Source of the DNA: Octopus vulgaris
Taxonomy: Eukaryota
Direction of reading: 5' to 3'
Length of the DNA: 64,000 bases
Assembly (NCBI GenBank): GCA_951406725.2
Contig: OX597815.1
Span: forward strand, 201,252,001-201,316,000
The position numbers and the translations under genes are program-made. Of this stretch, positions 25,199 to 62,709 are shown in pieces (the first letter of the stretch is position 1; each line of letters starts with the position of its first letter). The notes under the pieces were generated by a model. That model was not told where the DNA came from and searched no databases. It was given only the letters and a program-made list of their open reading frames with translations.

Positions 25199-31443
<6,245 letters not shown>

Positions 31444-31972
31444 GAGTGAGAGATCAGTTCATGCCATCAAAGTGACACTGGGGTAAAATATACGAAACCC
31501 AATATACCCATCATGACTACCCGTCTGATAAGTGTACACCAGGCACATGCATCACAACCATATGTGCGCGACATGGTGATCTCATATCAAGATAAACAGC
31601 ACATAACGTTGCAGGTGGGGCCCAGTTAGAATTTTCTTCAGGTTGAGTAGCCCATCCCGCTCAAAAGGTCCCTGAATAAGGGTTGTTTAAGGATGTGGAA
31701 CGAAACACCCATGTTTCCAGAGGTGAATTATTCAAACCCCAAAGAATCTCTCTCAACACATGGCTATGATGTTCTCCCACTACTTCTGCTCGTGATCAGA
31801 CATGCACATGTCATCAGCCATTAAGGGACATGCTCAACTGGTTACGGTCAAACAGCTGACAAGCAAATCTGTGGTATTGAGCAGAATATTTGCTGTAGCC
31901 CATCTTTTATACCAAGACAAAACAATATACATGATAACACTTTCAATCAATTAAGATCAGAAGCCATGAGAG
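31444..31972 (-). mobile_element. 529-bp non-coding element embedded in (TAA)n; candidate non-autonomous retroelement
   Basis: Flanked by TTA runs on both sides; both ends match the second copy at 52710-52885; no ORF. Strand is inferred from the shared fixed end and the variable opposite end. Confidence 0.75.
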
Positions 31973-43682: not shown

Positions 43683-43764
43683 GGTCCCGGGTTGAGTCGG
43701 GGTTAACCACAGTAAATAAGGTACTCAATACATAGCAGAGTAAATTAATTTATTTTATAGAAGG

Positions 43765-43815
43765 AGCTTCTACAGGACTAGAACTGTTTCATTCAGAAGA
43801 AATCATCAGGAAGCT
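43765..43815 (-). ncRNA. Minimal type I hammerhead ribozyme motif
   Basis: AGCTTC-CTGATGA-tTTCttctGAAt-GAAA-CAG-ttctagtc-CTG-TA-GAAGCT: 6-bp stem I, 4-bp stem III, GUA cleavage triplet; non-canonical U.U at 10.1:11.1. Confidence 0.7.
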
Positions 43816-43826
43816 TCCATCCGACA

Positions 43827-43873
43827 CTTCCTGATGATTTCTTCTGAATGAAACAGTTCTAGTCCTGTAGAAG
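43827..43873 (+). ncRNA. Minimal type I hammerhead ribozyme motif (inverted twin)
   Basis: CTTC-CTGATGA(43831-43837)-stem II-GAAAC(43850-43854)AG...CT-GTA(43867-43869)-GAAG; 4-bp stem I. Confidence 0.65.
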
Positions 43874-43883
43874 CTCCTTCTAT

Positions 43884-43930
<47 letters not shown>

Positions 43931-51102: not shown

Positions 51103-51339
51103 GGAGGCGCAATGGCCTAGTGGTTAGGGCAGCGGACTTGCGGTCGGAGGATCGCGGTTTCGATTCCCAGACCGGGCGTTGTGTGTGTTTATTGAGCGAA
51201 AAAAACACCTAAAAGCTCCACGAGGCTCCGGCAGGAGGTGGTGATCCCTGCTGTACTCTTTCACCACTCTAAAAGGCGGTGCTCCAGCATGGCCGCAGTC
51301 AAATGACTGAAACAAGTACAAAAAAAAAAAAAAAAAAAA
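51103..51339 (+). mobile_element. Young tRNA-derived SINE with a family-A 3' tail and poly(A)
   Basis: A box tggcctagtgg (51113-51123), B box ggtttcgattcc (51156-51167), family-A tail from about 51269, A20 at 51320-51339. Confidence 0.85.
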
Positions 51340-51384
51340 GTATATTGTCTGATTGACTTATTTATTTTTATACTCTTTCTCGTT

Positions 51385-51610
51385 TACTTTTTTACTCTTT
51401 TATATGTTCCAGTCATTTGACTGCGGCCATGCTGGAGCACCGCTTTTAGTCGAGCAAATCGACGCCAGGACTTATTATGTGTAAGTCTAGTACTTATTCT
51501 ATCAGTTTCTTTTGCCGAACCGCTAAGTTACGGGGACGTAAACACACCAGCATCGATTGTCAAGCGATGTTGGGGAGAAAAACACAGACACACAAACAAA
51601 CACACACACA

Positions 51611-62181: not shown

Positions 62182-62207
62182 TATATATATATATATATAT
62201 ATATATA

Positions 62208-62656
62208 CAATTTAAAATTAGGATAAAATCTTTATAAGAATGTATCAAGTAGTCAGCGTGAAAAACCTCATAAGAGAAAAAAATCCACCAATTTTTTCAT
62301 TTAAATATATTTATTTATATTATACAGAGGGCATTATTACACATAAATGCTACACGCTAGGAGGGACTCTTAAAGTCAAAACTACTAAAATAAATAAACA
62401 CATCGTACCGAATGCAACACTCGAAGCAAGTCATTTAAAAATATAATTTAGCTGCAGATCACCGTGATTTCGTAATCAGTGCAGTGGTGCACTCTTAACT
62501 CATCGGTGCAAACATAATTCAGCTACATTCTATTTTTAAGTGACTTGATTCGAGAGTTGCATTCGGTAAGATATGTTTATTTATTTTAGTAGTTTTGACT
62601 TTAAGAGTCCCCCGTAGCGTGTGGCATTTATGTGTAATAATGCCCTCTATAATATA
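62208..62656. mobile_element. Fold-back pLTR-like element inside (TA)n: inverted arms of about 138 bp (62316-62454 / 62520-62656) with a hammerhead in the spacer
   Basis: Arms about 90% identical by eye (also visible as mirrored ORFs EGIITHKC...KVKTTKINKH); TA runs on both sides. Confidence 0.85.
62453..62510 (-). ncRNA. Type I hammerhead ribozyme motif (U4C variant) with palindromic stem III
   Basis: TGCA-CCGATGA-GTtaagAGTGCAccacTGCACTgattAC-GAAA-TCACgGTGA-TC-TGCA: 4-bp stem I, G10.1:C11.1 pair, AUC triplet. Confidence 0.78.
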
Positions 62657-62661
62657 TATAT

Positions 62662-62706
<45 letters not shown>

Positions 62707-62709
62707 TAG

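Follow-up and report, generated by a model that had tools for sequence, protein, structure and literature searches.

The hairpin at 62.4 kb of the window, by which we mean the whole stretch of 64,000 nucleotides of Octopus vulgaris DNA analyzed here, is probably the product of one insertion of a non-coding hammerhead repeat with a unit of ~497 nt. Two cDNAs would have been joined head to head in this event, likely by a reverse transcriptase (RT)/GIY-YIG enzyme of the Penelope-like element (PLE) type acting in trans. Copies of the same family elsewhere in the genome end at two 3′ sites, A and B, next to (TA)n runs, pair one A end with one B end, share short overlaps at their junctions, and mostly read through the predicted cleavage site of the hammerhead.

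Structure of the hairpin at 62.4 kb

The arms of the hairpin (62317-62454 and 62520-62657) could be aligned without gaps, with identity at 125 of 138 positions, and are separated by a spacer of 65 nt (62455-62519). The predicted minus-strand fold of positions 62300-62670 had an energy of −208.6 kcal/mol (z −29.6), which was equaled by 0 of 100 shuffled sequences. The mismatches, corresponding to a divergence of 9%, are scattered along the arms, as they are in other family copies. In the numbering used here, +1 is the base directly after the predicted cut. The inverted arm spans +3 to about +139, its first base being the third nucleotide past the cut, and the direct arm spans −63 to about +247, including ~108 unpaired nucleotides that continue past the stem down to about position 62210. 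Both outer ends of the insertion meet (TA)n. The parts of the locus are as follows, with the basis of each assignment in parentheses:

62182..62207, no strand: (TA)n target microsatellite, left flank (sequence)
62208..62316, minus strand: unpaired "tail" of the direct arm, from 3′ end site A (about +139) to site B (about +247) (monomer match to c254)
62317..62454, minus strand: direct arm, paired part, monomer +3 to +140 (arm alignment)
62451..62513, minus strand: type I hammerhead motif with U4C core and AUC triplet, predicted cut 62457/62456 (motif scan and family covariation)
62510-62507 / 62456-62453, minus strand: hammerhead stem I, UGCA/UGCA (motif scan)
62506-62500, minus strand: hammerhead core, CCGAUGA (motif scan)
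62499-62472, minus strand: hammerhead stem II, two-part (motif scan)
62471-62468, minus strand: GAAA (motif scan)
62467-62459, minus strand: hammerhead stem III, UCAC-G-GUGA, followed by the triplet AUC (motif scan)
62455..62519, minus strand: 65-nt spacer, i.e., the stretch of the direct arm beyond the inverted arm, monomer −63 to +2
62518..62521, no strand: head-to-head junction with a 2-nt overlap of the arms, TG on the minus strand (median overlap across the family, 2 nt)
62520..62657, plus strand: inverted 5′-truncated arm with its end at site A, monomer +3 to about +139
62652..62708, no strand: (TA)n target microsatellite, right flank (sequence)

The initial annotation of this sequence had described a hairpin of ~138 bp with a hammerhead in its loop, a spacer consisting essentially of the ribozyme, and an inversion breakpoint adjoining the predicted cut. 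The arm alignment and the fold agree with this description, the family-conserved type I motif fills the 65-nt spacer, and the inner end of the inverted arm lies 2 nt from the cut. With its long B arm, its short A arm, the 2-nt overlap, and TA on both sides, the 62.4-kb hairpin is a usual product of the family, and the single locus is ordinary.

The hammerhead motif in the 62.4-kb copy

A motif scan of both strands identified one type I hammerhead in the whole window, located on the minus strand. It has the type I core (C3-U4-G5-A6-N7-G8-A9, GAAA, and an NUH triplet), with a U4C variant in the 62.4-kb copy. As none of the 147 matches of an Rfam scan of the window (E ≤ 1) belonged to a hammerhead family, the assignment is based on the motif and on covariation within the family. 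The microRNA and snoRNA matches of the Rfam scan were rejected, since all were below the gathering scores and most were simple repeats. An inverted repeat at positions 51273-51446, with arms of ~35 nt and an A/T-rich spacer, was seen solely as a sub-threshold microRNA match. Positions 43690-43890 belong to another repeat, in which a CUGAUGA...GAAA motif and long inverted arms are found beside TA runs; it showed no similarity to the 62.4-kb family and gave no hammerhead call under the stem rules of the scan.

The ribozyme had been assumed to have no antisense partner and to be able to fold beside the long stem, and neither assumption was supported. Of the 3′ strand of stem I, the greater part (+3 to +6, 62454-62451) is taken up by the long stem, and the 3′ strand of stem III is predicted to pair with the hammerhead core. 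When imposed in the calculation, the active secondary structure had a predicted cost of 8.0 kcal/mol in the isolated motif and 12.3 kcal/mol inside the hairpin, tertiary terms, dimers, and help from proteins being left aside; for the isolated motif, the median across the family is 5.9 kcal/mol (range, 1.0 to 14.1; n = 82). Because the 3′ strand of stem I is drawn into the long stem and the core is the minority U4C variant, the active fold is predicted to be disfavored in the 62.4-kb copy, and this copy is probably a dead remnant. U4C was reported to lower activity considerably in vitro while still allowing viroid infectivity (Perreault et al. 2011, PMC3088659), and a short palindromic stem III was described as favoring dimeric activity (PMC4209133). 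We rejected covariation of U4C with an alternative inhibitory helix (7/8 versus 48/74, p = 0.19).

A family of non-coding hammerhead repeats

Four DNA queries against the 2.8-Gb, 227-contig assembly gave 2,220, 1,440, 1,189, and 819 first-look candidates, and exact matches to two short family stretches were found at 230 and 309 places, with 0 matches for the reversed controls. The family comprises over 1,000 candidate places and is non-coding and circularly permuted, with a unit of ~497 nt. The longest stop-free frame of the 497-nt monomer has 80 codons, and the monomers of sister subfamilies measure 474 and 484 nt. Among the 325 arms used for the end statistics (see below), 38 were longer than one monomer, the longest measuring 838 nt, and locus L272 has two hammerheads one unit apart; the 62.4-kb locus itself is sub-monomeric. 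No array past about 1.7 units was present among the sampled copies. As a short non-coding type I hammerhead unit without LTR or ORF, the repeat resembles a non-LTR retrozyme in the composition of its unit.

We retrieved hammerheads from 82 distinct sequences with a regular expression that demanded a near-intact core. U4 was present in 73 of the 82 and CUGANGA in 71, and 8 had C at position 4; the triplet was AUC in 45 cases, AUA in 33, AUU in 3, and GUC in 1. For 33 copies hand-picked from the 82 for diversity, 95.2% of the cells of the three-stem structure were paired and two-sided changes occurred at 10 of 18 pairs, these changes not being independent because of the kinship of the copies. 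None of 500 shuffles was as good, and slid alignments were only 16 to 49% paired. Since the covariation of the three stems exceeds that of both controls, the predicted ribozyme architecture is maintained across the family, for which self-cleavage is predicted. Family sequence was also found in contigs of all four of four sequencing runs guessed to be RNA, contigs that carry no strand, end, or circle information. A rise of contig depth near the cut was rejected as a sign of cleavage, as the loose ends there run on into hammerheads of sister subfamilies.

Ends, pairing, and target of the insertions

BLAST searches with three references yielded 458 segments, 364 of them unique. The 325 arms kept for end statistics exclude the window's own locus, loci obtained from the junction-containing query only, segments at locus edges, and all but one of the three copies of a segmental triplicate. 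In 12 cases an arm continued in the same orientation and no end was scored, and the pattern-derived loci were the first 100 listed of the 230 and of the 309 places (contigs 1 to 9 and 1 to 6, respectively). Three end clusters of the first pass (c280, c483, and c228) were sister-subfamily artefacts that vanished with three references.

The 3′ ends fell at site A (about +130 to +152) in 144 arms, at site B (about +245 to +254) in 138 arms, and elsewhere in 43. Sites A and B are about 105 nt apart. (TA)4 was present at the arm end in 130 of the 144 A arms and 116 of the 138 B arms, compared to 7 of the 43 others. At least two further sister subfamilies, represented by L298, L300 to L302, L307, and L308, have an altered stem I and stem II, the same A/B ends, and a covarying hairpin near +80 to +125.

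An inverted arm was joined head to head in the case of 199 of the 325 arms, and 114 arms had no partner. An overlap of 1 to 8 nt (median, 2) was found at the junctions of 103 of the 199 joined arms. Sites A or B accounted for both ends in 74 of 99 junctions, of which 71 combined one A and one B end, compared to an expected 50% (p = 3e-18). The inner ends of the junctions range from −246 to +233. The layout known from PLEs, with 5′ truncation, an inverted 5′-truncated copy, a tail on one arm, and a microsatellite target, is found in this family.

The further-reaching arm in the 71 A+B junctions was the A arm in 31 cases and the B arm in 27, and in 13 cases the arms were level. In 23 junctions the loop is on the A arm and the whole tail, overlapping A, on the B arm, which argues for two separately primed cDNAs. 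The lengths of A and B arms showed no overall correlation (rho 0.03). Level junctions were more frequent than expected under independence (13 versus 3.5, and 31 versus 16 for junctions level within 30 nt), which indicates coupling of some arms, whether through fold-back, use of the same template, or a subsequent deletion. Partner arms diverged by 0.071, random arms of the same subfamily by 0.088 (n = 52, p = 1e-5), and the subfamily was common to both partners in 76 of 80 pairs. As partners are closer to each other than random same-subfamily arms, both derive from one template lineage, unless later gene conversion occurred; gene conversion after insertion could account for the allele sharing of the arms. 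An origin of the 62.4-kb junction by annealing through stem I was rejected, since the overlap is just 2 nt and lies 6 nt outside the stem.

Arm ends near the predicted cleavage site

From the position of the breakpoint, the initial annotation had suggested that the inverted copy was reverse transcribed from self-cleaved RNA, and it had proposed to look for 5′ ends of family copies clustering at the AUC site. The counts mostly failed to show such clustering. Of the arms at risk at +11, 119 of 133 (about 89%) read through the predicted cut, and the 15 ends in +1 to +10 correspond to 1.47 times the rate in −60 to +60 (p = 0.11) or 1.70 times the overall rate (p = 0.04, uncorrected). Five ends fell in +1 to +4 (1.2- to 1.4-fold, p = 0.3 to 0.4), no excess was seen in −5 to +5, and in the main subfamily alone the value for +1 to +10 was 1.24-fold (p = 0.33). 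Three ends of this unbiased sample were located exactly at +1. The 10-nt windows just 3′ and just 5′ of the cut contained 15 and 3 ends, respectively (p = 0.006), and the end density in +1 to +50 was about twice that in −70 to −1 (p = 0.001). In total, the excess near the cut amounts to ~6 ends in 133. On our reading of these counts, read-through prevails, and roughly 5% of the arms could be run-off products. The inverted copy is still best understood as a product of reverse transcription; as a rule for the family, run-off from cleaved RNA was not supported.

The densest cluster of 5′ ends was found at +51 to +63, where 1,000 nt at risk contained about 21 ends, compared to 7 overall. It may partly be an alignment or subfamily artefact, as the subfamilies differ at +45 to +60. 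The same interval is also the densest for near-perfect palindromic junctions (e.g., L134, L189, and L196).

None of the 49 whole-hammerhead arms in head-to-head junctions had a partner ending in +1 to +10. A targeted pattern matched 8 places, 5 of which were real hammerhead-tipped hairpins, namely, the 62.4-kb locus and four loci of a sister subfamily (L298, L300, L301, and L302) whose short arm ends at about +4 to +16. Control anchors, which were unmatched for abundance and one of which was blind to the sister subfamily that yielded the four extra hits, gave 0/1 and 2/2 real hits. Four of 11 pattern hits (L303 to L306) were discarded as chance matches. The same hammerhead-tipped layout was found in L013 (+1) and L027 (+7), both obtained from a query selecting that layout. 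Because about nine in ten fragments run past the cut site, the location of the 62.4-kb breakpoint beside the predicted cut is probably due to chance, and the stop at +3 most likely reflects 5′ truncation of the ordinary kind.

Candidate mobilizing enzymes

A GIY-YIG search of the assembly gave 148 matches, many of them within frames of 781 aa that hold an RT and a GIY-YIG domain, the RT domain scoring 28.9 bits, slightly below the Pfam cut-off of 29.6. Long copies of this autonomous element are 95 to 99% alike, and its (TA)n-flanked ends lie at two sites ~40 nt apart; in L246 and L248, one such end is present on each of two opposed arms. Copies of this young element, with a 781-aa frame, lie at L233:1445-3787 (G000:C16) and at least 15 other listed places. 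No canonical type I hammerhead was detected in L233 by a regular expression. In a second PLE group (L239 and L243), whose protein is ~46% identical to that of the first, both copies carry a type I hammerhead with the core CCGAAGA; U4C is thus present beside an autonomous-type frame, too.

The 497-nt unit contains no ORF and is thus not an autonomous PLE. A comparison of the monomer with 16 PLE loci, which cover about three protein groups and a minority of the 148 GIY-YIG matches, gave only TA-rich chance matches. RT fragments are located inside five family loci, and in L215 a TA run parts the fragment from the insertion. Since no autonomous partner among the 16 PLE loci shares monomer sequence, it is from the anatomy of the insertions that we infer mobilization in trans by a PLE-type RT/GIY-YIG enzyme.

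In another part of the window (25199-31450, minus strand), partly duplicated RT frames of 624 aa (26414-28288) and 699 aa (28359-30458) lie between long (ATT)n runs and resemble a microsatellite-targeting non-LTR retrotransposon, possibly of the Dong/R4 type.

Discussion

The insertion that we consider probable would proceed as follows. A Penelope-type RT/GIY-YIG enzyme acting in trans would cut both strands of a (TA)n run, and two cDNAs would be primed inside the RNA, each at one of two fixed sites, before being joined head to head. The template would be a circular or multimeric RNA in which the hammerhead junction is intact. For the 62.4-kb copy, one cDNA may have stopped at +3 and the other at −63, leaving the hammerhead in the loop. 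The role of the hammerhead would lie in the RNA cycle of the family, i.e., in the predicted cutting of multimers to monomers, probably as a dimer because loop III has only 1 nt. Several points count against this explanation: the absence of monomer sequence from the 16 compared PLE loci, the excess of level junctions, the alternative of gene conversion for the allele sharing of the arms, the roughly twofold end density in +1 to +50 relative to −70 to −1, which plain random truncation leaves unexplained, a tail of ~105 nt compared to the 30 to 40 bp described for PLEs, and the lack of a long tandem array in the sample.

We regard it as unlikely that the inverted arm is a run-off cDNA of self-cleaved RNA, made as a minority pathway by the same enzyme on the same element, with the other arm copied from an uncleaved or circular molecule. 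The inner end 2 nt from the cut, the step in end density across the cut, and the three ends exactly at +1 are in line with such an origin, as is the identical layout of L013, L027, L298, L300, L301, and L302 set against 0 and 2 real hits of the control anchors. However, the great majority of arms (119/133) pass the cut, +1 to +4 is not enriched, the main subfamily shows no significant excess, and the overall excess is just ~6 ends; moreover, L013 and L027 were found with a query selecting their layout, and the control anchors were unmatched for abundance, one being blind to the sister subfamily of the four extra hits. A single cDNA that folded back, primed itself, and copied its own earlier part would suit the 62.4-kb locus, where the tail-bearing B arm carries the loop, and self-priming has been discussed for palindromic PLE junctions (Arkhipova et al. 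2013, PMC3846280). Private variants common to both arms and the excess of level junctions (13/71) point in the same direction. We nevertheless judge this origin to be quite improbable, as the A arm reaches further in 31 of the 71 A+B junctions, the 23 junctions in which the whole B tail overlaps A would require a jump back to the RNA, and arm lengths are uncorrelated overall.

Long inverted arms, a very stable predicted hairpin, and TA flanks would also be expected of a DNA transposon of the foldback or MITE-like type whose termini are long inverted repeats, or of a selected host hairpin RNA that presents the ribozyme. This reading is very improbable and largely refuted by the variable junctions. 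At the family level there are no fixed symmetric terminal inverted repeats: the inner ends vary from −246 to +233, the outer ends are asymmetric (A versus B), a partner is missing for 114 of 325 arms, and partial tandems occur among the copies. The 9% of scattered arm mismatches, which occur likewise in other copies, and the predicted disfavored active fold likewise speak against this reading.

An insertion by a PLE-type enzyme can be compared with what has been described for endonuclease-bearing PLEs. These have (TA)n targets and form inverted 5′-truncated copies that bear a tail of 30 to 40 bp at one of their ends (Craig et al. 2021, PMC8557442; Arkhipova et al. 2013, PMC3846280), and their inverted pLTRs are joined head to head with the tail on one arm (PMC3846280, PMC8557442). 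The octopus family shares with such PLEs 5′ truncation, partial tandems, the inverted copy joined head to head, the tail on one arm, (TA)n targets, and a hammerhead near the 3′ end. It differs in that the unit contains no ORF, the tail is about 105 nt instead of 30 to 40, and no similarity was detected between the monomer and the pLTRs of the 16 compared PLE loci. For the autonomous element Poseidon of Anolis carolinensis, two internal RT start sites were reported to bound the tail in vitro, with both strands cut and extended; hammerhead cleavage was dispensable, and unprocessed RNA was the main substrate (Frangieh et al. 2024, PMC11167929). In the octopus family, two internal start sites bounding the tail, an AT-rich target, and cutting and extension of both strands are likewise suggested, here read from genomic copies. 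In contrast to Poseidon, both family ends lie in AT-rich sequence that is similar to the target, and genomic copies are the source of the strict pairing of one A with one B end (71/74).

Metazoan retrozymes were described as type I hammerhead repeats expressed as circles, also in mussel (Cervera and de la Peña 2020, PMC7229834), and were proposed to derive from PLEs as non-autonomous elements (Li et al. 2026, bioRxiv 10.64898/2026.07.22.740005). The octopus repeat resembles these non-LTR retrozymes as a non-coding AT-rich unit of a few hundred nucleotides with a type I hammerhead, in its circular permutation and partial tandems, and in the presence of autonomous PLEs alongside. Its unit of 474 to 497 nt compares with 170 to 400 nt (PMC7229834) and 51 to 972 (bioRxiv 10.64898/2026.07.22.740005). 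In contrast to the metazoan retrozymes, which are known as circRNA, the family is known from DNA sequence, and the sampled copies contain no array beyond about 1.7 units; it consists mostly of sub-monomer head-to-head pairs with two fixed 3′ ends, an arrangement not described for metazoan non-LTR retrozymes in the available parts of these reports. We found no paper coupling retrozymes with the head-to-head layout, a search to which the supplements of the cited papers could add such families. Judged by titles and the beginnings of abstracts, none of the papers found on retrozymes and octopus concerns the 497-nt family, and in the accessible portion of the repeat annotation of Octopus vulgaris (PMC13282606) Penelope-like elements are present and the word "ribozyme" is absent. 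These comparisons fit an element that works like a PLE insertion without being an autonomous PLE and that matches the retrozyme class in its unit and hammerhead.

As a more specific and tentative possibility, a dimer of the PLE RT/endonuclease would copy circular hammerhead RNA from two fixed starts, one per cut strand, and ~5% of the cDNAs, perhaps including one at 62.4 kb, would have run off self-cleaved linear monomers. If true, the family would be a genomic record, hundreds of events long, of PLEs mobilizing retrozyme circles, and the run-off cDNAs would record cleavage in vivo.

The useful result of this analysis is the family-level counts, i.e., 71 A+B junctions out of 74 and about 89% read-through. 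They support the view that animal retrozymes are moved by Penelope-like enzymes, for which Li et al. (bioRxiv 10.64898/2026.07.22.740005) argued from co-occurrence and phylogeny, and the insertion anatomy matches that of an autonomous PLE of the same genome. The pairing of ends (71/74) supports an origin of the head-to-head structure of PLEs from two cDNAs begun at fixed sites, one per end. Read-through suggests that most templates of integration were not left cut at the hammerhead, in agreement with the in vitro data for Poseidon. With its length of only 500 nt and two mapped start sites, the RNA would lend itself well to tests of this type of insertion.
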